In this document: positions 11,397-47,749 of the stretch, piece by piece
Layout of the letters: every line of letters starts with the position of its first letter
Position numbering within the stretch: position 1 is the stretch's first letter
Source: Thermoproteota archaeon
Lineage (GTDB): Archaea; Thermoproteota; EX4484-205; JAAOZP01
DNA length: 64,000 nucleotides
Assembly: GCA_038848185.1 (NCBI GenBank)
Contig: JAWCNV010000010.1
Span: 1,361 to 65,360, forward strand
Direction: 5' to 3'
The notes under the pieces: generated by a model
What the model was told of the DNA's origin: nothing
Database searches by the model: none
The model's input: only the letters and a program-made list of their open reading frames with translations
Position numbers and translations under genes: made by a program

Positions 11397-14300
11397 ATGC
11401 GCCACATATCGTTTACCGGTCTCAGGACCCCCCTGATACTTTCACTATTGGTCTTGATGCTTTTAACGCAGCTGACTTTCGTAACAGGATCCGTATCTTC
11501 GAGCAAAAGTAGTCCAGTCCAAATAAGCGATATTGGTAGTTTGAGCTTTGAAAACATCTTGGGGCATGTTGAAACCCTATCAGGATTCGGTTCCCGTGTT
11601 GTCGGTTACGATGGTTTCTTTGAGGCTGCTGACTATATTAAAGCATACTGGTCCTCTTTAGGCTTTGAGGTACGTGAAGAGAAATTTGACATGGTGACGC
11701 CTATCGTTGAAGACTGCTCTATAAAAGTAGAGACGGGTGATGGAACCATATTAGAGTTTGAGGCTTATCCACTTTGGCCTAATCACGTAAATCCTTGTCC
11801 CTACACAAGTCCTGAAGAGGGAGACAGGCTCATATACGTTGAAGGAGGGATTCCGGAAGATTTTGACGGCTCAAACCCGAAGGAAGCATTCGTCCTAATG
11901 GAATTTAATAATCGTTGGTATTGGAAGAACGCTGCTCTATTCGGTGCAAAAGGCATAATATTTCTTGAACCGGAAGAAACTACCGGTATCCAAGCTATTC
12001 AAAAAGTGTTCAGTATTCCAATAAACTTCCCTCGCCTATATGTAAGAGGCCAAACCGCCTCATATCTGAAGAATCTTGTAAAGCAAAGAGGAGAAGTCAA
12101 GATATGGGTAAACTCCAAGATGAAATGGGAACAGAAGAAAGTATCCAACATAATCGCAGTCATAGAGGGTTCTAACCCTGATACGAGAGACAAAGTGGCT
12201 GTCATAGGTGCTTACTATGATTCCTGGTCGATTGTGCCACAGCTTTCACCAGGTGCCACAGACTCCATAGGGATATCTTTCCTGTTAGAGCTTGGCAGGC
12301 TTTTAAAGGATACTCCTCCGGAAAGAACTGTCTGGCTAGTAGCTTTCGCAGGGCATTATCAAGGTTTGGCAGGTGGCAGGGAATTCATGGAGAAACATTT
12401 TGACGAGTTAGCTAGTAAACTTGAGATGATGTTAAGCGTTGACTTGGCGAGTGAGAGCGATATTTTAGCTGTTTACGCAACCGGTTCAATGTATGGGTAC
12501 TTGCAGCCACAGACGCTTTTAGCCAGATACAGTAGGTGGTTAGGTGATATCTTTTCAAAGTGGAAACCTGCTATTGAGAGTGCTATGGGTGAGGAGTATC
12601 ATGTGATAAACGGGGTCACTTGGTCAGACCCGAATTGGATAAGAAGTTCTCGCCCCTTCGAGCCTTTTCCAATATACTTCGAAGCCGAGATTTTCACCGA
12701 AGCCTGTTACGGTGGTGGTTTAGGTTTCGTTACAACGAACACCTTCAAAATATACCAGTATACGCCGTTAGACACAGTCGACAAGTTGATTCAAGATAAT
12801 ATTAGGAAACAAGTAAGCTTCCTGTGGCCAATACTGTACAATTGCGTTAACATGGAGGTAACTTACTTCCTTGCTCCAAAAAGGATAGCAACTGACTGGG
12901 GGTTAATCACTCTAACGATTCAGCTGGCTACGTATGATAAGATTACCGACTGGTTTAGAAGCTACTATCATGAGGATGCGATTTTTCTGGTTTCTGTTAG
13001 TGGGATTTCGTCTTCTCAGCAGCAAGTGGTTTACGCAGGTTTCTCAGCCCCCTCTTCAATAGGCTCTTTAAGAAGTGCTGTGGTACAGGGTGTGACAGTT
13101 GGACTGTTTGCCTCCTCTTCTGGTGTAAGCCAAGGGCAGGTTCAGCAGGGTTCGCTTGCAACCCCTCTTGGGTTCACCATGGTTGCTAAGCCTGATGCTC
13201 AAGGGCAGGTAGTTATTAAAGGAATAAGGCCTTTAACAGGTATTGACGTGCAAGCATACGTTATTGATCCGGAAACTGGAAAAATATTATGTGCAACAGA
13301 CACCGGGCCATTTGGAACCACCAAACTTAGGTATGGTGGTCTTTTCGGACAAGCCGCTGCAGCCGCAGCACCAACCCTTACCGCAGGTATGGAGGCACTA
13401 GTTTATCTCGCAGCATCAGGTGAGGGCGCTCGCTCTTTTAACCTCTTTGCCCCGCCATGGTGGCGATACGTTCCAATCATTAACGTTTCGTCGATCGCGA
13501 TATTAGGGCTTATTGATCCAGTTAACATTAAGGATGCGGCAGGACTGACACTAGAGGTCTACAACTTCATTTCTCACAGCTACCTTATTTGGAGAGATAC
13601 TCTTTCACCATGGCCAGAAACCATGGCTTTCATTCAACCAGATGTTCCTGTCGAAATCTTGATAAAAAGCGGAGGACGAATAGTGGCTATTTTAAACAAT
13701 GCCTCCAGCAAGTATCCTGAGGGTCAAGGCTACCTGCTTAAGCATGGTGAGACAAAAATCTTAACGATGTTTGATGCTGTAGATAGTGTGTTTTATCTTG
13801 CTCAGGCTAGAGCCGGCTTTTTGATGGAAAGAATGTCAGCAAATCCGAAGCTTGTACTCCATCTTGAGAAGATGAACAGTTTCAGAAAAGCCTCGGAAGA
13901 AGATCTGCAGAATGGGAAACTAGGTGAGTTCTACTCCCTATCTATTGCCTGCTGGCAATATGCGTTGCATGCTTACCTTTCTTCCTTCGAGCTAACATAT
14001 GACGTTGTTAATACAGCGTCTTTCTTCTTCTTCCTATCGGCCGCCTTCATAATTCTGGTTGCTAGGTTAATCGCAAGAAGAGAAGCCGGGGTAAAGCGTA
14101 TGATGTATATAATCGCTTTATTCTTAGTGGTAAATGTGCTTTTAGGATTAATTCATCCTGGTTACGCTATTTCATCAAATATCTGGATGCTTATAAATGG
14201 GTTGGCCATAATCCTGTTCTCAATCCTCTTGGTTTACGTTGTGATAGATGAGTTTAATGATGCTGTGAAAAGCATAAGCCAATCAATCCTTGGCTATCAT

Positions 14301-16055
14301 AAATCTGACATTGAGAGAAACAGCTTCATATTCTCCGCTTTCTCCATCGGTGTGGAAAACCTCAAAAAGAGGTATATTAGAACTGCTTTAACATTATCGA
14401 CCATCATAATAACCGTCCTTGCAATGACCATGTTCACAACTATGGGTTTAGTCGTTACGTCATATAAGACAGAGTTAGGCACGATGCCTGCTTACACAGG
14501 TTTCCTCATAAAGAAACCATTGCCTGACATCATTAATGTTCCCCTATCCGAGCTTTATATGATGGGAATAAATGATATTGCGTCACAAGGGCTCGGAGAA
14601 TTCCAAGCTTGCCCAAGAACTTGGATATATCCTCCGGGCATGAAGATGTTTGTAACATGGGCTAATGCGACGAAGTCAAGCATTAGGGCAATATTAGGAA
14701 TCACTCCAGAGGAGGCTAAATTATTAGAGCCTGCGCTTTCCTCTGGCACTACTTTCATGGAAGGTGCGGAGCGAGTAGCTTTGGTTAGTAGCGGTCTCGC
14801 CAGCCAGCTGAGTGAAGACCTTGGTATAGAGGTTAAGGTTGGTACTTCGATTAGTATTTACGGTATGCCTGTCACAGTCGTAGGGATCCTAGACGATGAG
14901 TTAAGCAAATCTGTTTTCAAAGACTTGGATGGTGGCGATTTTGTGCCCCTCAACCCAACCTCCTCACTTACGAGCGGAGCGCCGGTTTACCTCGATGTTA
15001 AAGAGGTACTAATTGTTCCCTATGATTTTGCAAGAAATGTCTTCAACGCTCAGCCTAACATCATCGTTTTACACTCCGGCACATCTATTAAAACTGAGGA
15101 TTTGGGTCAGCGTGCTTATGACTTGGCTTTGATACTACCCTTTGACATCTTCTTCGGCTCAATGCAGCATGAGTCCTCAGGCAAGGTTGCAACCAGAGAT
15201 GTATACTTAATCAGTGGAACTGAAAACATGCTGGTGCCTTTAACAATCTCTGCCTTAACGATTTTATCAATGATGCTGAGTGCAGTTTACGAAAGAACAA
15301 AGGAGATTACGACGCTTAGTACTCTAGGGCTTTCGCCACGCCACATCGGGTCAATCTTCCTAATAGAGTCAATAGCACTGGCTTTTATCGGCAGCTTCAT
15401 CGGCTATATAACGGGGGCAGGAGTAATGACTCTCTTATGGAGGCTGAACATGTTTCCCAAAGAATTGATTCCGAATGTGTCTTCAGGAGTAATAATTATA
15501 GTCATGGGTGTGATAATATTAGTTACGGTACTATCATCTGTTTACCCAATAGTTAGAGCCTCAAAACTAGCAACCCCGTCGTTACTGAGAAAGTGGCAGA
15601 TCGGAAGCAAACCGGTTGAAGACAGGTGGAGCGTAGCTTTACCCTTCAACGCTACTACCTCAGAGACGCTAGGGGTCTTAGAGTTTCTAGCTGAGTATTT
15701 TGAGGCTTCGTCTTCCACAAGCGGGAGGGCAGGACTCTTCATCCTCCTTAAGCCTGCAGAAATAATACAGGAGGATAATAGAAAAATCTTGAAAGTGCAG
15801 TTACAACTATCACCATTTGACGCTGGAATAATTCAAAATCTTGAAGTAGTTTGCCAGAGGATTGGTACCGATAGATATGGCTTCGGAATCCTGATAAATA
15901 GACTATTGGGCACGGAAAACCTTTGGGTTACGGCCAACAAGAACCTTCTCAGCGAACTTCGTAAACAGTTCCTATTCTGGAGGGCTCTTGGCGTAAGTGA
16001 TAAGGCAAAGTATATAGAGCGAGGGGAACGGAGGCAGAGCACTAGTAAGGAGTGA
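11397..16055 (+). CDS. Giant membrane protein: signal peptide, PA domain, degenerate M28-peptidase-like ectodomain, 3 TM, MacB/FtsX-type permease unit, conserved non-ATPase cytoplasmic C-terminal domain (cassette A, 'L' subunit)
   Basis: 1552 aa. Signal MRHISFTGLRTPLILSLLVLMLL. PA-like GDRLIYVEGG...AALFGAKGIIFLEPEE. M28-like VAVIGAYYDSWS...PGATDSIGISFLLELGR with metal ligands substituted (H to Y; DD to TD; EE to GH). MacB-type TM1 LKKRYIRTALTLSTIIITVLAMTMFT (around 14360-14460). FtsX core AVYERTKEITTLSTLGLSPRHIGSIFLIESIALAFIGSFIGY (around 15280-15400). About 170-aa C-terminal tail, no Walker A. Confidence 0.7.
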   Translation: MRHISFTGLRTPLILSLLVLMLLTQLTFVTGSVSSSKSSPVQISDIGSLSFENILGHVETLSGFGSRVVGYDGFFEAADYIKAYWSSLGFEVREEKFDMVTPIVEDCSIKVETGDGTILEFEAYPLWPNHVNPCPYTSPEEGDRLIYVEGGIPEDFDGSNPKEAFVLMEFNNRWYWKNAALFGAKGIIFLEPEETTGIQAIQKVFSIPINFPRLYVRGQTASYLKNLVKQRGEVKIWVNSKMKWEQKKVSNIIAVIEGSNPDTRDKVAVIGAYYDSWSIVPQLSPGATDSIGISFLLELGRLLKDTPPERTVWLVAFAGHYQGLAGGREFMEKHFDELASKLEMMLSVDLASESDILAVYATGSMYGYLQPQTLLARYSRWLGDIFSKWKPAIESAMGEEYHVINGVTWSDPNWIRSSRPFEPFPIYFEAEIFTEACYGGGLGFVTTNTFKIYQYTPLDTVDKLIQDNIRKQVSFLWPILYNCVNMEVTYFLAPKRIATDWGLITLTIQLATYDKITDWFRSYYHEDAIFLVSVSGISSSQQQVVYAGFSAPSSIGSLRSAVVQGVTVGLFASSSGVSQGQVQQGSLATPLGFTMVAKPDAQGQVVIKGIRPLTGIDVQAYVIDPETGKILCATDTGPFGTTKLRYGGLFGQAAAAAAPTLTAGMEALVYLAASGEGARSFNLFAPPWWRYVPIINVSSIAILGLIDPVNIKDAAGLTLEVYNFISHSYLIWRDTLSPWPETMAFIQPDVPVEILIKSGGRIVAILNNASSKYPEGQGYLLKHGETKILTMFDAVDSVFYLAQARAGFLMERMSANPKLVLHLEKMNSFRKASEEDLQNGKLGEFYSLSIACWQYALHAYLSSFELTYDVVNTASFFFFLSAAFIILVARLIARREAGVKRMMYIIALFLVVNVLLGLIHPGYAISSNIWMLINGLAIILFSILLVYVVIDEFNDAVKSISQSILGYHKSDIERNSFIFSAFSIGVENLKKRYIRTALTLSTIIITVLAMTMFTTMGLVVTSYKTELGTMPAYTGFLIKKPLPDIINVPLSELYMMGINDIASQGLGEFQACPRTWIYPPGMKMFVTWANATKSSIRAILGITPEEAKLLEPALSSGTTFMEGAERVALVSSGLASQLSEDLGIEVKVGTSISIYGMPVTVVGILDDELSKSVFKDLDGGDFVPLNPTSSLTSGAPVYLDVKEVLIVPYDFARNVFNAQPNIIVLHSGTSIKTEDLGQRAYDLALILPFDIFFGSMQHESSGKVATRDVYLISGTENMLVPLTISALTILSMMLSAVYERTKEITTLSTLGLSPRHIGSIFLIESIALAFIGSFIGYITGAGVMTLLWRLNMFPKELIPNVSSGVIIIVMGVIILVTVLSSVYPIVRASKLATPSLLRKWQIGSKPVEDRWSVALPFNATTSETLGVLEFLAEYFEASSSTSGRAGLFILLKPAEIIQEDNRKILKVQLQLSPFDAGIIQNLEVVCQRIGTDRYGFGILINRLLGTENLWVTANKNLLSELRKQFLFWRALGVSDKAKYIERGERRQSTSKE

Positions 16056-16061
16056 TAAGGA

Positions 16062-17942
16062 ATGGAAGAAGTCAAGCAGAAGGGGCTTACATGGAGGGCT
16101 GTTCTAGCAATCATATTCGTAGTGTTCGTCATAGAGCCAGCGATAGTTTACAACTGGCTGGTCAGTGGTCTTTGGGGGCTACCTCTTCAAAGCTGGGCAG
16201 TCATATTGCTATGGATTGGCTTGGCAAGGCTTCTAGGCTCCTCATTAAGCTCCAAGGAGATTTTTGTCATAAGAATGGTGGAGACAACAGGTCTAATGTT
16301 CACCGGCTACTACTTTGCATACTTACTGCGTAACCAGTATTTCGCAAATTCTGAAATAGCAGCACTGTTTGGCATGCAGGATCAAATACCCCCGTTCTTC
16401 TCGCCTCTTGGAGAGTTCGCCCAGAGATCCATGCTACAAAGGACATTTTTCGACTTTGCTTGGGCTCTGCCCATACTGGTCTCCGTTGTTATACCTGTAG
16501 TGCTCGTCGCAGTCGCCAATTATGTGCTTGGTCTGCTTGCCTTCAGACTCTACGTGCAGGAGGAGAAGCTGGAGTTTCCACTAGCCTCATGGGACGCTAG
16601 GACGATGAAAGCCTTCGGTGAAAGAGACAAAAGCCTGATCAAATATATTGCTCTCTCCATAATGGGTGGATTCCTTTACTCTGTAATGAGCCAAGGGCTC
16701 ACTACCATACTGGGGGTACCCCTGTTTCCACGCTATACCATAGATCTAACCAACATAGTTGAGACTATGCTTCCGGGGGCCTCGTTCTCCTTCAGCCTAG
16801 ATTTGTTATCTTATATAACTGGCTTCATCCTACCGATTCAATTTACAGCTGCGCAATTCATATCTTCAGTTGCACTATCTATTTTCGGAAACTATTACGT
16901 GACAGTTAACGATTTATGGCCTGCTGAGAGCAAATGGCAGGCTGGCCAAGGTTATCTCTGGATCTACCAGAGGTCTTCACTCTACTTCTGGAATAGCTTC
17001 ACAATAGGGTGGGGCATAGCAATGGCTGTAATTCCACTCTTGATAAGGTATAAGTCAGTCGTCAGAGCATTTACAAGAGTTGGTAGTGGTCTCGGAAAAA
17101 CGGAGAAAGGCAGTAGACTGCTTTCCAGCAAATTCCTTATTCTTATATACTTGGCTACTGCAGGAGCATCCATACTCATCACGAAGATTCTCATACCTGA
17201 CTTTCCTCTATGGGTCCTCGTGCTCTTCACGCTAGGAATCTCGTTTGTGATGACTCTGCTACAAACACACTCTGCAGGGATCACCGCCGGGTTTAGCGTC
17301 CCCTATCTTAGGGAAACCATGATATACTTTAGCGGTTACGATAGGATTGACATATGGTTCGCACCACCTGACATGATGCTTTTCCTCGGAGGATCAGGTA
17401 TAGCTCAACAGCTTAAGCAAGCATCTATGCTGGGCGTGGAAATAGAGGAGTATACTAAAGCGTATTTCCTAATGGTCTTCCTTGGGCTCTTGGGAAGCTT
17501 TATATTCGTTTCTCTCTTCTGGAGCCTCAGCCCTATACCCGGGTGGGCATACCCCTACACGATTTCAGCATGGCCTGTGGAAGCATTGAACTTCTGGAGG
17601 TGGCAAACCTGGCTCTGGTCTGGTTATCTCTTTAGAAGAGAAATGATGTTAACAGGTATTGGTGTCTCTACTGTGCTCTACCTGATATCGGACCTTGTTT
17701 TCCACATGCCTTCTTTCCCGATTGCAATGATGTCCGGAATGCTGATGGTTCCAAACATAGCTCTATCACAATTCCTGGGTTCCGTAATATCTGTAGGCAT
17801 AAGCAGGTTTTTAGGTAAGAAACTATGGGATGAAAACAAAGGGTTCTTTGTGATAGGTTTATCACTCGGAGACGGTCTCTTTTCCACAATTTTAAGGGTC
17901 CTAACATTGATAGGCAGGTCAGTATGGCTTAAGCCCTACTAA
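16062..17942 (+). CDS. Polytopic Trp-rich membrane protein, subfamily P1 (cassette A)
   Basis: 626 aa, 12 or more hydrophobic segments; homolog of 41143-43107 (GLTWRAVLAIIFVVFVIEPAIVYNWLVSG vs GLTWKTVLAIIFSSFIIQPAVIYLYLVSG); contains EKLEFPLAS motif; starts 7 nt after the upstream stop. Confidence 0.65.
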   Translation: MEEVKQKGLTWRAVLAIIFVVFVIEPAIVYNWLVSGLWGLPLQSWAVILLWIGLARLLGSSLSSKEIFVIRMVETTGLMFTGYYFAYLLRNQYFANSEIAALFGMQDQIPPFFSPLGEFAQRSMLQRTFFDFAWALPILVSVVIPVVLVAVANYVLGLLAFRLYVQEEKLEFPLASWDARTMKAFGERDKSLIKYIALSIMGGFLYSVMSQGLTTILGVPLFPRYTIDLTNIVETMLPGASFSFSLDLLSYITGFILPIQFTAAQFISSVALSIFGNYYVTVNDLWPAESKWQAGQGYLWIYQRSSLYFWNSFTIGWGIAMAVIPLLIRYKSVVRAFTRVGSGLGKTEKGSRLLSSKFLILIYLATAGASILITKILIPDFPLWVLVLFTLGISFVMTLLQTHSAGITAGFSVPYLRETMIYFSGYDRIDIWFAPPDMMLFLGGSGIAQQLKQASMLGVEIEEYTKAYFLMVFLGLLGSFIFVSLFWSLSPIPGWAYPYTISAWPVEALNFWRWQTWLWSGYLFRREMMLTGIGVSTVLYLISDLVFHMPSFPIAMMSGMLMVPNIALSQFLGSVISVGISRFLGKKLWDENKGFFVIGLSLGDGLFSTILRVLTLIGRSVWLKPY

Positions 17943-17955
17943 AACAGGCATCTGA

Positions 17956-17990
17956 ATATTTTTTTCCTAGTTTTTGATTATTGTTTTCAT
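17956..17990 (+). terminator. T-tract terminator candidate (ATATTTTTTTCC...TTTTTGATTATTGTTTTC)
   Basis: T7 run beginning 16 nt after the stop of the 626-aa gene; archaeal terminators are oligo-T tracts. Confidence 0.4.
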
Positions 17991-18003
17991 TATATGCTAG
18001 TAA

Positions 18004-18014
18004 AACTTATATAC
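18004..18014 (+). promoter_or_regulatory. TATA-like element (ACTTATATACT) for the 683-aa gene
   Basis: Centred about 34 nt upstream of ATG 18044. Confidence 0.35.
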
Positions 18015-18043
18015 TTCCAAACATCCTATTAGACGATGGTAAA

Positions 18044-20032
18044 ATGGCTGAAGAAGTTAAAAGTGCTTTAACACCCAAAATGTGGATATTCCTAATAGCG
18101 CTCTCGGTTTTGATGAGCCTTATCGGAGTATCGGCAGCGCCTTTCGCACCCTCATGGGCTTGGTCAACAGTCATGGGTTCTTTCACAGGTCCGATCGTAG
18201 TTCTGTTCATACTACTACTACTCTCTAAGGCTCTTAAGCTGCAGGGTTTAGGTCTTCAGAAGCTTGGTCTAGTATACACGGTATCATCAATATCCCTAAT
18301 CTTCTGCTGGAGCATGATTCCCTATGGTATACTCCACAACTCAGCAAACATGCGCATGGTAACATACGACCCATACACCACAGCACTTGCAGACCAGTTT
18401 GTTTTCGGACCGCGTGCAGAGGTAGCTTCCCAAATCCAGACGGGTGGCGCACTACACCTCGTAGGCGAATGGGCCCCCTGGATGGGATGGTGGTCAGCTT
18501 ACGCCATACTGTGGCTGGTGTTCTGGGTCGGATGGCTAGCATTGCTCCACGAGAGATGGATAGAGGTGGAGAAGCTACCTTTCCCGGCTGCTCTAACTGG
18601 AACACTGCAGATACAGCTGATAGCTGGTCCTGAAAAGGACGGCCGGCTCAAATACTTCCTAGTGGGTGTTGCGATAGGCGCATTAGTCATATTGCCGATA
18701 GTAGTACATGCACTCTACCCCGCCTTCCCCGACATATATGGTTGGACGGCTGACCCATATCTTCCATGGTGGATGGGCACGCTGAACCTTGCCGGAGTGC
18801 CTGCCGCATCAGCAATCCCTGTTATGAGCTTCCTTCCAGTGAACCCGATGGCTTACGCACTTTTCCTACTGTTCCCAACGAAAATACTCTTCTCAATATG
18901 GATATTCAGTCTACTAGGCGTGATCATACCGGCACAGATAGCGTGGTACATGGGCTACTACTCTGGAATACAAACGGCTGGTTGGAGAGCTGACTACCTG
19001 CTGTACCAAGAGCCGTTCAAGTATGGTGGCATATGGGTAGGCGCATTCGTAGGACTAGCCTTAATCTGGTTCGTTCTTAACGTACCCTACATGAAGAGCC
19101 TGTTCTCAAAATCTGTCGACGTCAGTAAAAAGGCTATTGCCCCCATGATGGGATGGATTATGATAATAGTGTCCACCATAGGGCTAATCGCTCTACTAAT
19201 CGTAGCAGGTGCTAATCCACTCGGCTCAATACTGATAGTTGTATCCATGTGGCTACTCTACATGGGTACGATGAGAGTATACGGCTTCGGCAGCATCGCT
19301 GGCTCAGCTTGGACCTCGCCCATAGACTGGCGTCAATTCCCGTGGATTACGAAGTATGTTTGGCACCCGGGAATGACGGCGGAGATGCTTAGCGCTAACC
19401 CGGCACTGGCCAAAGAATACTGTACGACCATGATGCTTACCAACAGGTTCACCGGAGAAATGATGGGTGAGATCAACACTCAATTCGGAATGTTATTCGC
19501 CATGCCGCTGTGCTACAAGGTTGGATACGATACTGGGACACATCCAAGAGACATAACTATGCTGATGCTGGTTTCAGGCATAATCTCAGCTGTGATAGGT
19601 TTCACACTATCTGTCGTGTTCGACTACGCTGCAGGGACAGCTAACACTCCCATGGGCATGTACGACGCTTGGTGGATATGGGTCTTTGCAGTACCAGGAA
19701 CCGTTGAGACCATACCTACAAGCGAACCTTTCTGGCCGTACCTATTAGCCGGTATCATCCTTTCTGCAGTACTGAGCTTCCTCAACTTCCGCTTCGCATG
19801 GTGGCCACTGGATCCTGCGGGTGTATGCGTTGCCCTTGGAGCAGGACCCGGAGGATGGATGCTTCCTGCGTTAGTCGGGTGGATCATTAAGACTGTGGCT
19901 GTGAGAATGGGTGGCTCTAAGCTTCACGACAACGTCATCATACCTATCGCCGTAGGGGTACTGGTTGGCTACTGGTTCCTCTGGTTCCTAGGGTCAATCA
20001 TAGGGCTCATAAAGTTCTTCATCCCTGCATAA
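18044..20032 (+). CDS. Polytopic Trp-rich membrane protein, subfamily P2 (cassette A)
   Basis: Start moved to MAEEVKSALTPKMW (ATG 18044) by homology to MAEEAAEVPS start of paralog 36020-37993. The ORF-track TTG at 17981 lies within the terminator/promoter region. Contains EKLPFPAAL motif; C-terminal GGSKLHDNVIIPIAVGVLVGYWFLWFLGSIIGLIKFFIP conserved with paralog. Confidence 0.65.
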   Translation: MAEEVKSALTPKMWIFLIALSVLMSLIGVSAAPFAPSWAWSTVMGSFTGPIVVLFILLLLSKALKLQGLGLQKLGLVYTVSSISLIFCWSMIPYGILHNSANMRMVTYDPYTTALADQFVFGPRAEVASQIQTGGALHLVGEWAPWMGWWSAYAILWLVFWVGWLALLHERWIEVEKLPFPAALTGTLQIQLIAGPEKDGRLKYFLVGVAIGALVILPIVVHALYPAFPDIYGWTADPYLPWWMGTLNLAGVPAASAIPVMSFLPVNPMAYALFLLFPTKILFSIWIFSLLGVIIPAQIAWYMGYYSGIQTAGWRADYLLYQEPFKYGGIWVGAFVGLALIWFVLNVPYMKSLFSKSVDVSKKAIAPMMGWIMIIVSTIGLIALLIVAGANPLGSILIVVSMWLLYMGTMRVYGFGSIAGSAWTSPIDWRQFPWITKYVWHPGMTAEMLSANPALAKEYCTTMMLTNRFTGEMMGEINTQFGMLFAMPLCYKVGYDTGTHPRDITMLMLVSGIISAVIGFTLSVVFDYAAGTANTPMGMYDAWWIWVFAVPGTVETIPTSEPFWPYLLAGIILSAVLSFLNFRFAWWPLDPAGVCVALGAGPGGWMLPALVGWIIKTVAVRMGGSKLHDNVIIPIAVGVLVGYWFLWFLGSIIGLIKFFIPA

Positions 20033-21635: not shown

Positions 21636-21644
21636 CCAACAGTA

Positions 21645-31955: not shown

Positions 31956-32105
31956 ATTAGAAGAAATGCTTAAAGGACGCATCAAGTAGCTTTTTATACT
32001 GTCTTTTTATGAGGAAACGTAAAGTAATGTTTTAAAGGTTTTTTCAGGAAGCAATATTTAAATCTCCTGAAGAGGTTGTATCTTTATATGGGGCATGAAA
32101 GCGGA

Positions 32106-41100: not shown

Positions 41101-41134
41101 GGATGGCTATTGTTCTTTTTCTCATTACTAACAC
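38108..41134 (-). CDS. Large membrane protein: signal/TM, carboxypeptidase-regulatory-like ectodomain, 3 TM, MacB/FtsX-type permease unit, non-ATPase cytoplasmic tail (cassette B 'M' subunit)
   Basis: 1008 aa; AVLRGRVTDVNGNALSSVSVVIID...AGYYELE (CarbopepD_reg-like); MacB TM1 KRYVKLRRFSSTLIIVSICILISMATTLTSV; FtsX core MYDVVDRRRREIFIYTTLGFNPMHIALVFIAESATMGLLGGGFGYLLGLSF; tail VEFLTGHLQDRLKE...FSERVEDLGQ homologous to VDFFTGYVITRLSE...FADRVEDLEE of 21716-24760. Confidence 0.7.
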   Translation of the reverse strand: MLVMRKRTIAILTFYLFLGTMLIGVSAQTGGETAVLRGRVTDVNGNALSSVSVVIIDWYRQRLLAVLETDSAGYYELEVESGFPHSYRVYAYKEENGFMVFAPSTVEKTLFPEPGETIELDLRLVPGAALNITGEAWNIFTARYSTSLKVQVIDPESGEVLNSAIDPNIGDYTPFYGDNVTSYFVNPNWLSPVISTSYWTIVIVPANRPIELRVIASQPGVIDQTFIVRNGDKPFTLHQGALESIDITISAYSWSLSKVEEASKLMWEKIYEAERFGFFLSSLKGDAKEKVDDRIVEAREKINYGEISVELQGKLREAYVYATRYIVNEIEGMKNIAEKGALLLPIFLTVFSIMLTLFITEKSKLTIRLPLFILSFTIINACFYYLYPGIPLILTRFSNLFYLSVSAAFLSGLLFMSLFQKIIHEASSPTKVPLRSALAVAFTLGKRYVKLRRFSSTLIIVSICILISMATTLTSVTSIFGLNSETVGSSSEEWVFMKNIGETEGLFVPIDIITMAQIRNETNVKSVSPKMESLPTIGQYSVQLISENGRASLLGMIGINPELDTKYVSLELASGSYISNDYSIMVSYITAQTLRVKPGDNVTLKFSSGGFVFEVPVKVAGVFNDDEFNNKKELNGEPYTPRVIVEGKLAYCNASQVIILSLQKALELSSKPYSLPISISRLIIEFNNPEDASVTSFIQTQAWARGFHVWLSHEGKILHYYLGTMIEIRFLDILPPLIILMMFLMRLMYDVVDRRRREIFIYTTLGFNPMHIALVFIAESATMGLLGGGFGYLLGLSFFRTMSYVSRFIQVGISENLHWEASMLSIVVGLLISVASAIPPSLKAASLAVPSLKRKVKLTPEEEVKRHEEIYKAYGERVLSIPIKARREEVEFLTGHLQDRLKERTGGFSERVEDLGQIENVKTPDGTEMYLLGFRYVFVQRGKTFSMSNKIRLECKPGEEWFRMYLHSTAEQEGMPEVIRERVMKLVYDIAIDWTKRRPSAHKAPPRM

Positions 41135-41142: not shown

Positions 41143-43107
41143 CTAGTATGGCAATAGCCATACCGATCTTCTCATTAGGAAGATTGCTGAATATAGAGTA
41201 TTCATCATACCATCCCCTAGCATAACTCCGATCACCATCATGTTTCGATACCTGTACCAACGATCCTTACCAATTATTTGCGAAAACAGTCTGCTGCCAA
41301 GTAGCGACCCTATTAGAAGCGCTTGCGACCATGCTATCGGATTTACTCCGCCAGCGTTCCACCAGAACCCGCCGCTTATGAAGGAAATTAGGAACCAAGG
41401 TGCGCGAAGCACCAAGTCCATCACCGCGTAAACTATTGAGCCTACAGCAAATGAGCCAAGGATGAGTTTATCGTCGAAGAAGCGTCCTGTCCATGTCCAT
41501 TGAAGATTTCTAACAAACTCTGCAGCCTCCGTGACCCATCCAGTAACAGTATAGGGGTACGCTTGCGACGGAAACGGCTGTATCGACCAGAACAGGTTGA
41601 CAAATAGGAAGCTGCTAAGCAGGCCCAATACAGCTACAAGTATAAACGCCTTAACATAGTTGCTGTGTCTGACTCCACAGATATCTGCCCCCCTAAGGGC
41701 CTGAGCTATATCCCCACCGCCTTGAAAGACCTGTATCGGTGCGAAAAGGATAAGTTGACTGGTAAACCCTGAATAGTGAACTATTAGTTCCTTCTGATAG
41801 GGGATGTTGAGGCTACCGTAGGTAACACCTGCTGAGAAGGTTGCTACAAATGATGCGAAGAAAGACCATCCCATAGTATATGCTATGATTAAAGGCAGGA
41901 TACCTATGAGATCAGGCACAAGTATAAGGTTCAGCCCTATAGAGCCCACGGTTGCAAGGAAGAAGATGCCGAGCAACAAGTAGGGGCTCGGCATTTTTCC
42001 ACCTATCTCGCCAACCGCCCTCATCTCCTTCAGAGTGTTGACGAGCCTCTTGAATACCGTTGGATGCAGGAGAAATGGTATGACTATAGTTGCAAGAGAC
42101 AGGCCTATGTGGATGCTTATGAAGAAGTAGATGACAGACCTGTCAAGTATTTGCCAGCTTTCCCAACTCTTTATTGCCTGAATATTAACTTCTGGTGGCC
42201 AAAGGTTCATGGCGGTGAACAAGTGTGTTCCAACAAAGTAGTATGCAAGAGAACCAAGAAACTGGGCTACGGCAACGCCCGGCGGGAGTAGGAAGCCCGC
42301 TACGTAATGCACCGGGTTGATCGAGACTGTGTAGGTTGCCCCTGGGAATAGATCCACTAGAAACCTTGTGAGGTCTATAGCCTGAGGTATTGAGGTGCCG
42401 CCTCCCCCAAGTATGTTGTAAATTACGTTTGGGATAAAGCTCCTAACAGTGTTTATAAGCACTCCCGCGACCGCGGACAGCATAAGGACTCTGAGCGTTG
42501 TCGGTTCCCTCTCTGCTAGGGTCAGCACTGTCCTAGCTTCAGCTGTGGCAGCTGGGAACTCTAGCTTTTGTACTCTAACATAGAGGGCGTAGGCGAAGTA
42601 TCCGATTGAAATATTCGCCATAACGTTGAATGTTATCGTGAGAACATTGAGGAGTATAGGTATTAGTAGGGCGGAGTCAAGCAGCACCCAGCTCTCCAAG
42701 TAGAGTCGGGATGCTAAAGAAGGGCTTGGAGCCCACCAGTCAGGTATTATGTTGGCTAAGCCGTATATTAAAGGGTATTCTGTGCTCCTAATGTACGTGT
42801 ATCTGATTGGAGCTAGGAAAGTCATGGGCAGGGCTCCCCACCAACCGGTGATCCCGCCGAGGGCACCTGTTATCCCTCCCAGAGCAGTTATGATGAAAGT
42901 TTCCTCCTTAGTAAGCGGGGAGCCCAGAAGCCTAGCTAACTGTGTCCATAGGAGTATGACTATCCACGCTTGGAACGGTAGCCATTGCCCGCTAACAAGG
43001 TATAGGTAAATTACTGCAGGCTGAATTATGAAGGAGCTGAAGATTATTGCTAGAACAGTCTTCCATGTTAATCCTTTTCCAAGCGCTTCTTGTTTCTCTT
43101 GAGCCAT
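41143..43107 (-). CDS. Polytopic Trp-rich membrane protein, subfamily P1 (cassette B)
   Basis: 654 aa; homolog of 16062-17942; QKLEFPAATAEART motif; C-terminal MLGDGMMNTLYSAIFLMRRSVWLLPY vs LSLGDGLFSTILRVLTLIGRSVWLKPY. Confidence 0.65.
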   Translation of the reverse strand: MAQEKQEALGKGLTWKTVLAIIFSSFIIQPAVIYLYLVSGQWLPFQAWIVILLWTQLARLLGSPLTKEETFIITALGGITGALGGITGWWGALPMTFLAPIRYTYIRSTEYPLIYGLANIIPDWWAPSPSLASRLYLESWVLLDSALLIPILLNVLTITFNVMANISIGYFAYALYVRVQKLEFPAATAEARTVLTLAEREPTTLRVLMLSAVAGVLINTVRSFIPNVIYNILGGGGTSIPQAIDLTRFLVDLFPGATYTVSINPVHYVAGFLLPPGVAVAQFLGSLAYYFVGTHLFTAMNLWPPEVNIQAIKSWESWQILDRSVIYFFISIHIGLSLATIVIPFLLHPTVFKRLVNTLKEMRAVGEIGGKMPSPYLLLGIFFLATVGSIGLNLILVPDLIGILPLIIAYTMGWSFFASFVATFSAGVTYGSLNIPYQKELIVHYSGFTSQLILFAPIQVFQGGGDIAQALRGADICGVRHSNYVKAFILVAVLGLLSSFLFVNLFWSIQPFPSQAYPYTVTGWVTEAAEFVRNLQWTWTGRFFDDKLILGSFAVGSIVYAVMDLVLRAPWFLISFISGGFWWNAGGVNPIAWSQALLIGSLLGSRLFSQIIGKDRWYRYRNMMVIGVMLGDGMMNTLYSAIFLMRRSVWLLPY

Positions 43108-43123: not shown

Positions 43124-46100
43124 TTAAGCCTCCTTCTGTAATAGTTCCCCTAATTTTTCACCCTCCTTAATATAGTGTTCTCTCAGGCTTGGAGGCATTG
43201 TCCTCCATATGAGAAGCTGTCTGCGCTGAGTATCTATGAACGCTTTGTTAGAGGTTATCCAGTTCTTCGTAATGCCGCTTCTTCTAACGAAGTATAGGGT
43301 CAAAGTATATCTTTTCATCTGGGACACGGCTTCCACATCAAAATCCTCCACTATTGCAAGGTCGAACGGTGCAAGCCTTATTCTAGAGTGTAGCCTTTTA
43401 ACCACTTTATCGCCCTCCCTCTGCTCGCTGAAACTTATTTCCTCAGGTGCAAATAGCCCTGTCTTCTCAAGACCGCTATAGGCTTGGAGAAACTCTTTTA
43501 TGAATGCAAGTATACCCATTAGTTCCCTTTCACTTGTAGCCACGAAGGGAAGCGGCACGGTCCAGTAGTCACCAACCGGCTCCGGGATTTTCCATTTACG
43601 TTCAAGACTGGGTGTCACAAGCTGCCACGCTTTTAAAGCGGGATAAAGCGTCGCCACAAGTTGTATAAAGATGGCGAGCAATATGACGATGAATATGAAG
43701 GATGAAGCGAAATTGGGGAAGAACTCAGTAAAATTATAGAAGCCAAGCCTTGTCATCGCCGATATGCCGACGATTCCAAACACGTAGCCAAGTACACTGC
43801 TCAACAAGCCATAGACAATGGATTCTGACAGGAATATTCCTGCTGTCTGGCTTGGAGAAGCCCCGACCACGACGTAGACCGAAACCGATTTTATTCTTTC
43901 ATAGAGTGTTCCAATTGTTATGTTCAGTATTGATATCCCAGCTATTATTAGAGGTATGATAAGGGTCTCAGCACCCATGAAGGTAAACCAAGACCTAGCT
44001 GTAAGCTCCCAAACATCCCCCATGGTCCAGCCCTCTAGGCTGGTATACTTAGTTAAACCATAGATGATATATGTGTCGAGCCTATAGACGAGTTCACGTG
44101 CAAAAGGCTCTATTTCAGAATCGTTGAAAGGTTTAATTGCGATACTCATAAGCTGTAGGGAGGATGGACCGAATAATTTTATAGCGAGGTCGAACGGTAT
44201 GATGGTGACCTCGTCGCCAAGCAGGTGTGGCGGGACTGCCCCTATGCCTGTCCCGATTACAATAGGGTCCTTAGGTGTTATTGGCTCCCCATCCAAATCT
44301 ATAAGCCCGCTGGTAAAACCCATCTCTTCGGCACCACCACCGTAGAGCGCGCTACCGTCAAACAGCCCTATTACAGTGAGATTAAGCCCCCAGATTGCTA
44401 TCTGGCTTCCCGGCCCTATCGTAGAATTCAGTTCTTCAGAGAGCCTAGACGCCAATGATTGGCTTATGAGTATGGAGTATAGCTCTCCAGAGTAGAACCA
44501 TCTTCCTCTAACCCCTATTCTGCTCCATATCCCTGTAACTGATTGCTCTTCAGGAGCCATTGCAAGTACTGCATAGACTCTGGCTAATTGTTTGGAAGCG
44601 TTCCAGTATATGTAAGCCCTACCGCCTGATCCAGCTGGGGGATAATACCAGCCTCTCGGAACGACATAAGCCCTGTCACTTAGCTCATACTCCAGCTGGT
44701 ATAATAGTTCTATTGGTATAGCCGTCCAAGGTCTCTGTCTTACTAATATGCCGCTATAGGAGACAGGTATATCGACATTCTTCTCCATTCCCATGGGAGC
44801 GACCTTTCTAGGCTCCGCGACGGATGTTAGTGAGGTGAAAGTTATGAGGGCGAATGTTATTAGAGTTGTTGATGTTAACGTTAGTATTGTTCTAAAGGGT
44901 CTTTTCTTCATCCACTGCACACCTAAACCTAAAGCTGTTGTTAGGAGTGCGCTTGTTGTCGAGGCGGCTGCATGTACTCCTAAGATTTTTGAACTTACTA
45001 TTCTGGTGCTTGTTGAAGCCTCGGTGTATAGAAAGGTTAATAGGATGACTATAAGGGAAGCGACACCCAAGCTTATCAATATCATTAACAAGTTGTTTGC
45101 AAGATGAAAACTTGGATGAAATAAGAGTAGCAGTATAGTCAGCGCCATCGTAATTAATATTACTCCGCTTGCCCTCTTTAAACCCGAATACCCGAGTATG
45201 AGCCTTTCAAAGACGTATGCAAAGGGCAATAGTAGCAAGAAGAAGAGGGCTGTCGTGGCTATTACGTTTTCAACAAGAATTCTTGTTTCAGCATATGCCT
45301 TCTGCTCATAGCTCCAAACTGGGTATGATAAGCCGTATGCTTTCGAGTATTGATTCTCATTCAGTGAGACAAGGGCATCATCAAGGTATCTTTTTGAAAG
45401 ACTGTGGTAGAGAAGTATCATGGGGTTGATTACCCCATAGCTCATTGATGTTGAAACTCTAGCATCATTCAGGGAGAAGAGTCCCTCCGCGCATGCAAGC
45501 GGACCATAGTTTACTATGATTGCTTCCCCTTTCTCTCTAACCCTATACCCACTGAGGCTCCTCATATCCTTGCCAGTGAGATTAGCTAGAACACTCCAGA
45601 CCATTCCTGTTCCACTATGGTATATCACTATCTCTATTGGTTCTCCAACTTCTGTAAAGAATACGTGGTCTCCAAAGACGGTCGACCCTGTCCACTTGCT
45701 CCAACGCACAGGATAGCCATGGGAGAAAGCGTTGTAAGCTGTGGGATTTAACGAGCTAGACAGGTCCCTCGGGTTTAGCACACCCTGAAGCACGATTGAG
45801 CCGCATTCAAATAGGGGTGCGTAAGCCCAGATGTTAGAGGCAGTTATTGCAACATCTGTTCTAGCTATTCTTCCTCCCGCACCGAACCTGTAACCCCAGT
45901 CTAGGGCCATATAGACTGCTCCGTTAGACGAGTTAACGGCCAAGGCGAAGAAATAAGTCGGAGCATTCTGGCCTGTGTATGGCTTCAGACCCTTGATTGT
46001 TGCTACACCATTCTCATCAGGCTTCACTATTACTGAGAAGGTTCCGGTTGCCCCAGAACCTAGGCACTCGGTTCCTGTGGTAACCCCTTGGAAGGAGCCT

Positions 46101-47749
46101 GAGTAATAAACAATTATATCGCTCCACAGTTTCGGGTTCCTCTCCTCAGTTATCGGGTCTAAGAAGTCTGTGGTGAAGTTGTAGGTTGCAGCTATGATGT
46201 TAAGTGTTGAGAAACCCCACTCCGTTGAAAACCTTATAGCTCTTCCCGCCGATAATGGTAGGGCAGGTTCGTTGAGCAATGCATAGCTAATGCCTGTAAT
46301 AAAGTATACTTGCTTGAAAACATTATTGAAGTTAACCTTATCAAATGTGTCGAGTGGCGTCATGTGATATGTGAGAAGATCGTTGACTGTTAGTATTGTT
46401 AATCCTCCGCCACTAGCTGCTGCAGTGAATGGTTCAGAGTCGTAAGCTGTTGAACCGAATCTTACTGGTAGGGAGATGCGTGAAAACGGTGGAGTTGTGA
46501 GCTGGATTGCGTCATAGAAGTTGGCACCGTAAGTCGTATCATTAAGTGCCTTCCTTAAAGCAGGAAGGTAAAAGCTGAACACTCTTATGATAAGCGGAGT
46601 ATACTTAACGTTGAGGGATTGAATTATTGTATACGCGTAGGTTGAGCCTCTATTTACTATAGCTAGTTGATCAGAACCATAACTCAAATCTAGACTTATA
46701 AACAGTTTGATCTTGGTTCCTATCTCTTCGAAGTGTCTGTCAATGAACTCTCTTGCTCCCCATAGGGATTGGAAGTGTCCGGAGGTGAATAATAATATAA
46801 CTGATCTTTTAGGCCTGTTTTCAGCGAGAAACCTTGCAACCTCCAGCAAGACCGAGGGCCCTATGGATTCCGTAGCGCCGGGTGCTAACGCAGGTGTTAG
46901 AGAGTAGGAGTCATAATAGGCTGATAAGACAACGTATTCTCTACTTAGCTCTGGATCAGAGCCTTCTATAAGCCCAACAATATTCGGGACTTCCAGTCTC
47001 TCCCATGTCATTTTCGAATCTATCCAGATGGTTGTCTCACCACCTCTCTCTTCAACGTAGTCGACAAGCCTTCGCGAGTCCCTTGAGCTTAGGAGGTATT
47101 TCGGAAAACTTGTAGGGTTATTGTAAATCTTTTGAGAGGCTTCTTCTCTCACAGTATCCCTAGGGTAAGTATATACTACCCCCTTAGCTCCAAACATTAA
47201 AGCGTATCTGAAGAGCCATTTAGAGTTGAAATCCATTATTACGAATTTACCTGCAACATCCTTCTCATTGAAATCTTCAAAAGAGGTTCCGCCGACGTAA
47301 ATTGCCTTATCTCCCTCAGGGGGACTCTTATAGCTATTGGTGTTAAGGAAGTTCGGCTGGCACATGTAAGCTTTCAATTCTGTCCCGTCTTCAAGAGTTA
47401 TCTTCGCACCCCAGTCAACATATGATGTTAAAGTATAATACTCGTAGAAACTACTATTATTACCATATGGCTTAACACCTATAGTATTCAAATAATCAGC
47501 GATGTAGCTTGCTGCCTCTAGGAAACCAGAATGGCCCGGCATCCTTGATTCGAGGCTTGTGAAGTACTTTACATGGCTCATTATCAGATCTTGCCCCCCG
47601 TAATCCTTGAAGAATGTTGGCACTATACTTAGGTCGATCTCCTCTTCTTGAGCTAATGCTTTAGAATTAGGCAACAGGTAAAACGTTAGGAGAAACAGTG
47701 TCAATAGAGCCAATGGAAAACGCGTTTTACTTCCATACATCTGCCTCAT
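43124..47749 (-). CDS. Giant membrane protein: signal peptide, PA domain, degenerate M28-like ectodomain, 3 TM, MacB/FtsX permease unit, non-ATPase cytoplasmic tail (cassette B 'L' subunit)
   Basis: 1541 aa; signal MRQMYGSKTRFPLALLTLFLLTFYLL; M28-like YVVLSAYYDSYSLTPALAPGATESIGPSVLLEVARFL with the same ligand substitutions as 11397-16055; MacB TM1 MKKRPFRTILTLTSTTLITFALITFTSL; FtsX core YERIKSVSVYVVVGASPSQTAGIFLSESIVYGLLSSVLGYVFG; tail homologous to the tail of the 1552-aa paralog. Confidence 0.7.
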   Translation of the reverse strand: MRQMYGSKTRFPLALLTLFLLTFYLLPNSKALAQEEEIDLSIVPTFFKDYGGQDLIMSHVKYFTSLESRMPGHSGFLEAASYIADYLNTIGVKPYGNNSSFYEYYTLTSYVDWGAKITLEDGTELKAYMCQPNFLNTNSYKSPPEGDKAIYVGGTSFEDFNEKDVAGKFVIMDFNSKWLFRYALMFGAKGVVYTYPRDTVREEASQKIYNNPTSFPKYLLSSRDSRRLVDYVEERGGETTIWIDSKMTWERLEVPNIVGLIEGSDPELSREYVVLSAYYDSYSLTPALAPGATESIGPSVLLEVARFLAENRPKRSVILLFTSGHFQSLWGAREFIDRHFEEIGTKIKLFISLDLSYGSDQLAIVNRGSTYAYTIIQSLNVKYTPLIIRVFSFYLPALRKALNDTTYGANFYDAIQLTTPPFSRISLPVRFGSTAYDSEPFTAAASGGGLTILTVNDLLTYHMTPLDTFDKVNFNNVFKQVYFITGISYALLNEPALPLSAGRAIRFSTEWGFSTLNIIAATYNFTTDFLDPITEERNPKLWSDIIVYYSGSFQGVTTGTECLGSGATGTFSVIVKPDENGVATIKGLKPYTGQNAPTYFFALAVNSSNGAVYMALDWGYRFGAGGRIARTDVAITASNIWAYAPLFECGSIVLQGVLNPRDLSSSLNPTAYNAFSHGYPVRWSKWTGSTVFGDHVFFTEVGEPIEIVIYHSGTGMVWSVLANLTGKDMRSLSGYRVREKGEAIIVNYGPLACAEGLFSLNDARVSTSMSYGVINPMILLYHSLSKRYLDDALVSLNENQYSKAYGLSYPVWSYEQKAYAETRILVENVIATTALFFLLLLPFAYVFERLILGYSGLKRASGVILITMALTILLLLFHPSFHLANNLLMILISLGVASLIVILLTFLYTEASTSTRIVSSKILGVHAAASTTSALLTTALGLGVQWMKKRPFRTILTLTSTTLITFALITFTSLTSVAEPRKVAPMGMEKNVDIPVSYSGILVRQRPWTAIPIELLYQLEYELSDRAYVVPRGWYYPPAGSGGRAYIYWNASKQLARVYAVLAMAPEEQSVTGIWSRIGVRGRWFYSGELYSILISQSLASRLSEELNSTIGPGSQIAIWGLNLTVIGLFDGSALYGGGAEEMGFTSGLIDLDGEPITPKDPIVIGTGIGAVPPHLLGDEVTIIPFDLAIKLFGPSSLQLMSIAIKPFNDSEIEPFARELVYRLDTYIIYGLTKYTSLEGWTMGDVWELTARSWFTFMGAETLIIPLIIAGISILNITIGTLYERIKSVSVYVVVGASPSQTAGIFLSESIVYGLLSSVLGYVFGIVGISAMTRLGFYNFTEFFPNFASSFIFIVILLAIFIQLVATLYPALKAWQLVTPSLERKWKIPEPVGDYWTVPLPFVATSERELMGILAFIKEFLQAYSGLEKTGLFAPEEISFSEQREGDKVVKRLHSRIRLAPFDLAIVEDFDVEAVSQMKRYTLTLYFVRRSGITKNWITSNKAFIDTQRRQLLIWRTMPPSLREHYIKEGEKLGELLQKEA

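Follow-up and report, generated by a model that had tools for sequence, protein, structure and literature searches.

Paired FtsX-type and OPT-like membrane proteins beside intracellular sugar enzymes: a possible oligosaccharide-uptake module of Thermoproteota

What is the function of two large membrane-protein cassettes that stand on opposite strands of an archaeal contig, on either side of a group of sugar enzymes? The question is raised by a stretch of 64,000 nucleotides from a Thermoproteota archaeon (GenBank assembly GCA_038848185.1, contig JAWCNV010000010.1, positions 1,361 to 65,360), called the window below. Both cassettes, A and B, encode a very large protein (L), two polytopic proteins (P1 and P2), a second large protein (M) and an anchored surface protein (S), and cassette B also encodes a small protein (m). 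An earlier reading of the DNA, which we call the original prediction, took the pair to be an archaeal analogue of a polysaccharide-utilisation locus (PUL) built on an undescribed envelope machine. Our analysis suggests that the cassettes may form an oligosaccharide-uptake module in which the OPT-like permeases P1 and P2 would translocate the substrate, and the FtsX-type proteins L and M would capture it or hand it over. We put the probability of this reading at about 0.4.

All the open reading frames (ORFs) of the original prediction are present with the coordinates and sizes it gave (Table 1), the longest ORF of m, which it put at about 200 aa, being 223 aa. The gene order is indeed permuted between the copies, L-P1-P2-S-M in cassette A versus L-P1-M-P2-m-S in cassette B. 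The four pairs proposed as paralogues are homologous far beyond chance by BLASTP, although their identities, estimated by eye at 35-50%, were measured at 28-37%: 31% for the L pair over 1568 columns (E = 0), 37% for P1 (E 6e-119), 28% for P2 (E 2e-55) and 29% for M (E 1e-86). The same window gene order was found in two metagenome-assembled genomes (MAGs), GCA_038870495.1 (contig JAWCPA010000009.1) and GCA_038850895.1.

The original prediction recognised no component as a known transporter. We found that L and M are FtsX/MacB-type proteins according to Pfam, NCBIfam and fold, and that P1 and P2 fall in the OPT superfamily. The FtsX domain (PF02687, cut-off 25.5 bits) is detected in all four large proteins, with 59.5 bits in A_L, 40.9 in B_L, 49.1 in A_M and 36.2 in B_M. 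MacB_PCD is present in A_L (38.5 bits vs a cut-off of 27) and in many L homologues, and stays below Pfam significance in B_L and in M; the NCBIfam matches of L and M to lolCE and ADOP are sub-threshold. Hydropathy gives L and M an arrangement of 1+3+1+3 transmembrane (TM) segments, i.e. two MacB-like halves per chain. The two are distant paralogues, with 23% identity and E 6e-13 in a BLASTP comparison of A_M to A_L, and a hidden Markov model (HMM) of the L C-terminal part matches A_M with E 3e-46. In A_L the first ectodomain is made of a PA and M28 fold, beta-sandwiches and a helical stalk, and the second is MacB_PCD; A_M has an N-terminal beta-sandwich ectodomain resembling CarboxypepD_reg. 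At the C-terminus of L as well as M stands a conserved alpha+beta domain of ~150 aa on the cytoplasmic side, and for that of L Foldseek gave no convincing structural relative.

The fold of the permease part agrees with the domain matches. We predicted the structure of residues 851-1552 of L with AlphaFold2 (pLDDT 82, from a 41-sequence alignment), and the Foldseek matches of this model are LolCDE, MacB, a pneumococcal MacB-like transporter, YtrEF, YbbAP and BceAB, with E values of 1e-11 to 1e-12 for LolCDE and MacB. The model has an alpha/beta domain between TM5 and TM6. In the published structures of MacB and LolCDE the coupling helix, which lies between TM2 and TM3, contacts the nucleotide-binding domain (NBD). 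The A_L motif AVYERTKEITTLSTLGLSPRHI aligns with the coupling-helix region of YtrF and LolC, and the consensus ERxREIxxYSxVGLSP is kept across 41 L sequences; the counterpart stretch of A_M, VYERHREMKTLTLLGLNPVHI, looks similar by eye. We conclude that L and M are single-chain 'dimer-in-one' permeases of the type VII ATP-binding cassette (ABC) class with very large extracellular domains. The public labels of L homologues are 'M28 family peptidase', 'FtsX-like permease' and, from JGI, 'antimicrobial peptide transport (system) permease'.

In the ectodomain of L, Pfam finds Peptidase_M28 (PF04389) with 44.7 bits in A_L and 48.6 bits in B_L. The AlphaFold2 model of residues 1-880 (pLDDT 87, pTM 0.86) shows a PA domain and an M28 aminopeptidase fold, followed by beta-sandwiches and long helices leading into the membrane. 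Its best Foldseek matches are PA-M28 aminopeptidases, the transferrin receptor (TfR) and GCPII (E 1e-19 to 1e-24), among them 2ek8, 6hc6, 8acr and 3iib (E 1e-22 to 1e-24). We compared the catalytic residues across 16 aligned L homologues. The first His ligand (HxD) is replaced by Tyr in 13 of them (GAHxDS to GAYYDS) and kept in the other three. The catalytic and ligand EE pair is lost in all 16, being H[YWF] in 15 and HA in the protein of the distant locus L005, and the last His ligand has become an invariant Gln (Gln472; YHTxxD to YQYTPxD). Because the positions of the first and last His ligands and the EE pair are replaced family-wide, the M28 domain of L is a pseudo-peptidase that cannot work as a canonical di-zinc aminopeptidase, and by analogy with the transferrin receptor the ectodomain likely has a binding or docking role.

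Neither A_P1 nor B_P1 has a Pfam match, and neither P1 nor P2 of the window matches the OPT family (PF03169), P1 not even at E values up to 1. Pfam assigns A_P2 to DUF6784 (39.8 bits, cut-off 26.4) and DUF6785 (28.5 bits, cut-off 25), and B_P2 to DUF6785 with 90.7 bits against the same cut-off (E 1e-25). Four of 24 P1-family members do match PF03169, the best with E 2e-19, as does the DUF6785 protein of locus L040, and the P1 and P2 (DUF6785) families align to each other in hhalign with 98.9% probability (E 1e-17, 483 columns). A simple hydropathy scan gives P1 and P2 7-12 strongly hydrophobic segments, against an OPT expectation of about 16 TM segments. P1 and P2 are thus paralogous polytopic proteins by profile comparison, and these matches taken together support their OPT membership at the superfamily level, not at the family level. 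The P1 family is large; its profile collected 1138 cluster representatives from a library of 1.84 billion proteins, 434 of them at E <= 1e-30.

We collected 28 related archaeal loci (numbered with an L prefix) from species-representative genomes, all of them MAGs of Bathyarchaeia, Thermofilaceae or Thermoproteales. Conservation of the gene set, which the original prediction had proposed as a check, is borne out: L is directly followed by P1 in 28/28, the two genes lying a few nucleotides apart or overlapping, and P2 is present in every archaeal locus with enough contig flank. M is accessory; both cassettes of the window have it, as do L010, L011, L036 and L040. A search with the L family gave 193 hits from Bathyarchaeia, Thermofilaceae, other Thermoproteota and Armatimonadota. 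In two Armatimonadota genomes DUF6785 lies directly upstream of L and P1 is absent, so that the module is not specific to archaea.

The neighbour-joining tree of L agrees with that of P1 (r = 0.98 for 300 pairwise distances), and within-genome paralogues, i.e. copies A and B and the pair L025 and L037, split together in both. Copy A clusters with the clade L010-L029 and copy B with L036, L030-L035 and L040, each copy thus standing with orthologues from other MAGs, in agreement with the ancient duplication that had been proposed. Locus L036 shows 74-87% identity to copy B and an identical order, L-P1-M-P2-m; the two cassette types are found in other genomes too, e.g. L025 and L037 in one MAG. 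L and the OPT-like gene have been inherited and duplicated as a unit. Since the trees are congruent and the copies lie in separate clades, the genes of this unit duplicate and diverge together, and the split between A and B is older than the separation of the sampled MAG lineages. In some MAGs L, P1 or P2 is split into two or three consecutive ORFs (L028 5283-11921, L012 3168-5154, L032 4155-8850), which are either pseudogenes or assembly indels.

The genes around the module, in the window and in its relatives, point to the use of beta-manno- or gluco-oligosaccharides. The four enzymes between the cassettes are an AGE-family epimerase and glycoside hydrolases (GHs) of the GH5, GH42-like and GH3 types, as originally identified, and all four lack a hydrophobic signal at the N-terminus. 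In the PDB the best matches of the epimerase are cellobiose 2-epimerases (E 1e-47 to 1e-62), and the GH5 protein matches 1vjz (Thermotoga TM1752-type, E 6e-61) and 3w0k (Caldanaerobius Man5B, E 4e-52). No sugar ABC importer of the CUT1 or CUT2 type, i.e. a solute-binding protein (SBP), a BPD_transp_1 pair and a MalK-type ATPase, was found among the Pfam-scanned window ORFs of at least 150 aa, and no Pfam family of a SusC/SusD pair in any window ORF scanned. In the related loci, TrmB sugar regulators adjoin the module in eight cases and GH130 in three. A Pfam census of 129 neighbouring ORFs in these relatives is topped by xylose-isomerase-like TIM barrels, Gfo/Idh/MocA, UxuA, PfkB and MFS proteins, and none of the 25 families listed is one of peptidases or of amino-acid catabolism.

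Other parts of the window also carry sugar-related genes. A GH4 family (NAD-dependent) glycosidase at its left edge (1492-2838, + strand) adds to the carbohydrate theme of the contig. A second sugar-related cluster at 57785-62392 is composed of DUF6786 (57785-58813, +), a class-II glutamine amidotransferase-like protein (58849-59661, -), ThuA (59711-60385, -) and GH97 (60449-62392, -). DUF6784, DUF6785 and DUF6786 bear consecutive Pfam numbers and all three occur in the window, which suggests a shared biological context. In Thermofilum adornatum, a GH3 enzyme (Cel25), an extracellular hypothetical protein with weak glucanase activity (Cel30), a transporter-like protein and TrmB are reported to be encoded side by side (PMC6965361). 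The order of GH3 and the surface protein mid395 in the window (29646-33263) resembles Cel25-Cel30 in arrangement.

Surface proteins accompany both cassettes. The original prediction placed paralogous anchored proteins at the cassette ends, and this holds for up397, mid395 and the N-terminal domain of S558, whereas S485 and S558 have no detectable homology. The proteins up397 and mid395 and the N-terminal 300 aa of S558 share 25-33% mutual identity (E 1e-24 to 8e-58), the BLASTP E values of mid395 being 8e-58 against up397 and 8e-25 against S558; a profile search of PDB sequences and Pfam gave no match for the mid395 family. S558 carries in addition Mann_GBD_bact, a mannanase galactose-binding-like domain (34.1 bits vs a cut-off of 27). 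This domain is flanked by Thr/Pro-rich (TPTPTP) linkers at residues about 300-345 and 495-535. Linkers of this type are typical of the stalks of glycosylated surface proteins, and those of S558 give rise to spurious NCBIfam matches to adhesins and S-layer proteins. The S485 profile matches the designed 8-blade propellers Tako8 and Ika8 (E 4e-12) as well as WD40 proteins, and S485 homologues adjoin A-type cassettes in 9-10 loci. In the Thermoprotei GH130 clade (L006, L024 and L026, about 12200-15400) two tandem anchored proteins of ~510 aa, which match DUF4861 weakly and end in a coiled coil, take the place of the S485 type, and a 630-aa protein without family match follows P2.

The secreted protein up927 is weakly similar to GH5 mannanases of the PDB (E 6e-5 to 5e-4) and is the candidate extracellular depolymerase; a homologue with 58% identity lies beside the cassette-B orthologue of L036. 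Its longest ORF has 1107 aa (to 8494) and overlaps the start of an RraA-like gene on the opposite strand at 8157; a hydrophobic signal-like segment stands at residues 185-203 of this ORF, and gene callers start the protein at 7954. The small protein m of cassette B has no Pfam or NCBIfam match, and a 66% identical homologue occupies the same position in L036. A 212-aa antisense ORF wholly within A_M (23917-24555, -) is unlikely to be a gene. A NurA-HerA-Mre11-Rad50 operon for DNA-end resection (47975-54073) directly adjoins cassette B and is divergent from B_L.

Table 1. Positions and assignments of the cassettes, their genes and the neighbouring sugar-related and surface proteins in the window
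Feature	Position	Strand	Assignment	Basis
Cassette A	11397-24760	+	1552, 626, 683, 485 and 1014 aa in gene order
Cassette B	47749-33529	-	1541, 654, 1008, 657, 223 (longest ORF) and 558 aa in gene order
up927	5171..7954	-	secreted, 927 aa, Mann_GBD and weak GH5 endo-beta-mannanase-like segment	gene call, Pfam
up397	9863..11056	-	C-terminally anchored surface protein, mid395 paralogue, divergent from A_L	BLASTP, alignment
A_L	11397..16055	+	1552 aa, duplicated type VII ABC permease	Pfam, AlphaFold2, Foldseek
A_P1	16062..17942	+	626 aa, polytopic, divergent OPT-superfamily protein; starts 6 nt downstream of A_L
A_P2	17981..20032	+	683 aa, OPT-like, DUF6785 and DUF6784; gene-caller start 18044 gives 662 aa
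A_S485	20178..21635	+	signal peptide, beta-propeller-like repeats, C-terminal TM anchor, RRRK tail	TM map, alignment
A_M	21716..24760	+	1014 aa, second duplicated FtsX-type permease	Pfam
AGE epimerase	24787..26031	-	AGE family, cellobiose/mannobiose 2-epimerase-like	Pfam GlcNAc_2-epim, 174 bits
GH5	26213..27295	-	cytoplasmic; closest to bifunctional endomannanase/endoglucanases	Pfam Cellulase
GH42-like	27300..29354	-	cytoplasmic	Pfam Glyco_hydro_42 46.7 bits, 42M 33.1 bits; weak PDB beta-galactosidase matches
GH3	29646..31955	+	beta-glucosidase type, cytoplasmic	Pfam Glyco_hydro_3 280 bits, GH3_C 202 bits, Fn3-like 89 bits
mid395	32076..33263	+	signal peptide, ~300-aa domain, coiled segment, C-terminal TM anchor	BLASTP
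B_S558	33529..35205	-	mid395-type N-domain, Thr/Pro linkers, Mann_GBD, C-terminal TM anchor	Pfam, alignment
B_m	35389..36060	-	small 4-TM protein, 183-223 aa, kept in the cassette-B orthologue	TM map
B_P2	36020..37993	-	657 aa, OPT-like, DUF6785/DUF6784	Pfam
B_M	38108..41134	-	1008 aa, duplicated FtsX-type permease, A_M paralogue	Pfam
B_P1	41143..43107	-	654 aa, OPT-like, A_P1 paralogue	P1 HMM, E 9e-221
B_L	43124..47749	-	1541 aa, M28-like ectodomain and duplicated FtsX permease, A_L paralogue	Pfam

How could these parts work together? In the uptake reading, the secreted GH5-like enzyme would free beta-1,4-manno- or gluco-oligosaccharides from glucomannan or galactomannan, and the C-terminally anchored binding proteins (S558 with its Mann_GBD, the up397/mid395 family and the propeller-like S485) would hold them at the surface. 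L and M would be non-conducting and would transmit conformational change to their ectodomains, as other type VII ABC proteins do; these ectodomains would capture the substrate or dock the surface binding proteins and then pass the substrate to P1 and P2, the putative translocation path, which would be driven by the proton motive force. Since the NBD coupling-helix signature is kept, L probably draws on a LolD/FtsE-type ATPase whose gene lies elsewhere in the genome. The imported oligosaccharides would be processed by the cytoplasmic Man5B-like GH5 enzyme, the cellobiose/mannobiose 2-epimerase, GH3 and the GH42-like enzyme. The two cassettes are anciently diverged paralogues and probably differ in substrate preference. 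The identities of the components and the conserved unit of L with an OPT-like gene are shown, whereas we infer what is carried and in which direction, the physical complex and the ATPase.

Several observations weigh against such an uptake function. The co-occurrence of the module with GH genes, which the original prediction proposed to check, is not general: among the sampled loci only the window and the GH130 clade have GHs beside the module, and elsewhere TrmB regulators and enzymes of sugar catabolism make up the link to sugars. Judged by chosen seed families, no sugar gene was recognisable within 10 kb in about half of the loci. A search of the intergenic regions that carry the promoters of both cassettes and of the GH genes found no common TrmB-type operator, only A/T-rich TATA-like words. 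The known substrates of characterised OPT members are peptides or metal chelates and not sugars (PMC3061005), and our literature search found no paper on DUF6785 or on the L family. Physical contacts among L, M, P1, P2 and the S proteins are deduced from synteny alone. The energy source is a further difficulty. The 64-kb window encodes no ABC ATPase, a six-frame search for Walker A and LSGGQ motifs having matched Rad50 only, and 22 of the 28 archaeal loci, like both bacterial ones, have none within 10 kb of L. The ATPases that do lie nearby in the loci L030-L035 are of the DrrA type and probably belong to a separate exporter; they stand beside an ORF of 249-251 aa, the five ABC-2 permease matches of the census fit these ORFs, and no other ATPases are near.

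We also considered the DrrA-like ATPase, which is found in L030-L035 and just upstream of the window, as the partner of L and rejected it, the representative of L030 having a DrrA C-terminal domain and each of these ATPases standing beside one of the 249-251-aa ORFs. An ABC-2 exporter pair, a DrrA-like ATPase with an ABC-2 permease, precedes cassette A by ~10 kb (window 109-933 and the DNA upstream of it, L041 7683-9442), and a similar pair stands directly beside L-P1-P2 in six Bathyarchaeia loci (L030-L035, about 1900-3700); it is probably an independent exporter. As to known importers, the original prediction named the assignment of the parts to one with its ATPase nearby as an outcome that would speak against it; the window is without such an ATPase, and the architecture of the cassettes is not that of a canonical importer.

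An uptake module without ATP is one alternative. L and M would then be membrane-anchored scaffolds or receptors without ABC coupling, which would serve the surface binding proteins much as the transferrin receptor serves its ligand, and P1 and P2 would be driven by the proton motive force alone; we consider this unlikely. The lack of an ATPase gene in the window, in most of the archaeal loci and in both bacterial ones speaks for it, and the duplicated 'orphan' FtsX family ADOP (TIGR03434) offers a precedent, the match to it being weak. The conserved cytoplasmic C-terminal domain of L and M might in that case replace the NBD as a regulatory element, a role that we hold to be no more probable. 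However, the coupling-helix signature, which makes the NBD contact in LolCDE and YtrEF, is conserved in L, and the M stretch looks alike by eye. Locus L005, the most distant one found, retains ATPase genes, with ABC_tran-FtsX-ABC_tran directly upstream of a 1882-aa L and then P1 and DUF6785. Trans-encoded or shared ATPases are moreover common among ABC systems. Because of the L005 arrangement and the retained coupling-helix motif we favour a trans-encoded ATPase, which is not proven.

A second alternative, which we likewise regard as having only a small chance of being right, is that the cassettes serve envelope maintenance or export. Like LolCDE, FtsEX, BceAB or YbbAP, L and M would act on the outer face of the membrane with P1 and P2 as auxiliaries, and the GH island would be a mere neighbour; L and M might remove or release surface proteins with a lipid or C-terminal anchor, activate hydrolases outside the cell or confer resistance to membrane-active compounds. 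Every relative of L with a solved structure is a type VII system of the outward-acting or mechanotransducing kind, YbbAP-TesA being an example (bioRxiv 10.1101/2025.05.16.654284). C-terminally anchored surface proteins do accompany the cassettes, JGI labels homologues 'antimicrobial peptide transport system permease', and the ABC-2 exporter pair recurs nearby. But this explanation does not account for the strict pairing of L with OPT-superfamily transporters in archaea and bacteria, nor for the TrmB and sugar-enzyme neighbourhoods, and the ATPase it requires is unlinked to L in most loci.

Peptide acquisition, in which the M28/PA ectodomain of L would bind or trim peptides, P1 and P2 would import oligopeptides and the proximity of sugar genes would be coincidental, is suggested by the aminopeptidase fold, by the known substrates of the OPT superfamily (PMC3061005) and by the public 'M28 family peptidase' label, but is quite improbable given the family-wide replacement of the first and last His ligand positions and both EE residues, the sugar regulators and enzymes in place of peptidase or amino-acid catabolic families among the 25 census families listed, and the position of the window cassettes as the sole candidate importers amid cytoplasmic oligosaccharide-processing enzymes.

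Does the oligosaccharide-uptake function extend beyond the window? L with P1 and P2, with or without M and the anchored binding proteins, might be an unrecognised class of oligosaccharide importers in Thermoproteota (Bathyarchaeia, Thermofilaceae and Thermoproteales) and some bacteria, a tentative proposal that we think rather unlikely to hold as a whole. It is equally doubtful that in this class OPT-superfamily secondary transporters carry glycans while being fed by a type VII mechanotransducer with a pseudo-peptidase receptor, a joint claim of several parts. Of the original prediction of an archaeal PUL analogue on an undescribed machine, the PUL-like gene content is borne out and we found no publication on the gene set, but the machine is not of a new kind. 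Every part comes from a known superfamily with generic public annotation, and what is undescribed is the combination; our literature search found no description of the obligate pairing of a pseudo-M28/type VII permease with an OPT-like protein, nor of its link to sugar loci.

For uncultured hot-spring and sediment Thermoproteota, including Bathyarchaeia, ideas on the uptake of plant-polysaccharide fragments come largely from canonical ABC importers. If there is a second, widespread route, the metabolism reconstructed from metagenomes would have to be revised. DUF6785/DUF6784 and the family labelled 'M28 family peptidase' or 'FtsX-like permease' would gain a function, the substrate range of the OPT superfamily would widen, and type VII ABC mechanotransmission would have a new job, possibly with a trans-encoded or missing ATPase. 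The cassettes would then supply the central transport part of an archaeal counterpart of PULs, and the OPT and MacB/FtsX superfamilies would for the first time have a function related to sugars. Even with a non-glycan substrate, the strict FtsX-OPT pairing is a testable and undescribed protein partnership.

How does the module compare with known systems? PULs, both the Sus-like ones of Bacteroidota and the Gram-positive and archaeal sugar loci with ABC importers such as the Caldanaerobius Man5A/Man5B cluster, likewise bring together a depolymerase candidate, glycan-binding proteins, transport and oligosaccharide enzymes, but the window is without SusC/SusD, an SBP/CUT1 importer or a regulator, and its transport genes are FtsX-type and OPT-like. 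With the type VII ABC systems (MacB, LolCDE, FtsEX, YtrEF, YbbAP and BceAB) L and M share the FtsX four-helix TM bundle, an extracytoplasmic domain between TM1 and TM2 (MacB_PCD in A_L), long stalk helices and the coupling-helix motif, and the two halves are joined in one chain as in YbbP and BceB. They differ in having 1+3+1+3 TM segments rather than 4+4 or 10, in the ~850-aa first ectodomain of L with its PA-M28 pseudo-peptidase, in the extra cytoplasmic C-terminal domain, in the mostly absent linked ATPase, in the obligate synteny with an OPT-like gene and in an archaeal host without outer membrane or peptidoglycan. The ADOP duplicated orphan permeases (TIGR03434) are also duplicated FtsX-type proteins without an adjacent ATPase, but the weak match (E 6e-10, 37.8 bits) is far under the family cut-off of 622 bits, and neither an M28 ectodomain nor an OPT-like partner is present in ADOP proteins.

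The ectodomain of L resembles the transferrin receptor and GCPII in displaying a PA and M28 fold at the surface, and has lost the catalytic machinery as the transferrin receptor has. In L, however, this fold is fused to a type VII ABC permease instead of a single TM anchor, and the replacement pattern, EE to H-aromatic and His to Gln, is specific to the family. P1 and P2 are comparable to the OPT/YSL transporters (TC 2.A.67, PF03169) in length (620-680 aa) and polytopic nature, and some P1-family members and one DUF6785 protein score against that family. The P1 and P2 proteins of the window, in contrast, fall below PF03169, Pfam filing P2 as DUF6785 and DUF6784, and their genomic context is one of sugars rather than peptides or iron, always with an FtsX-type partner.

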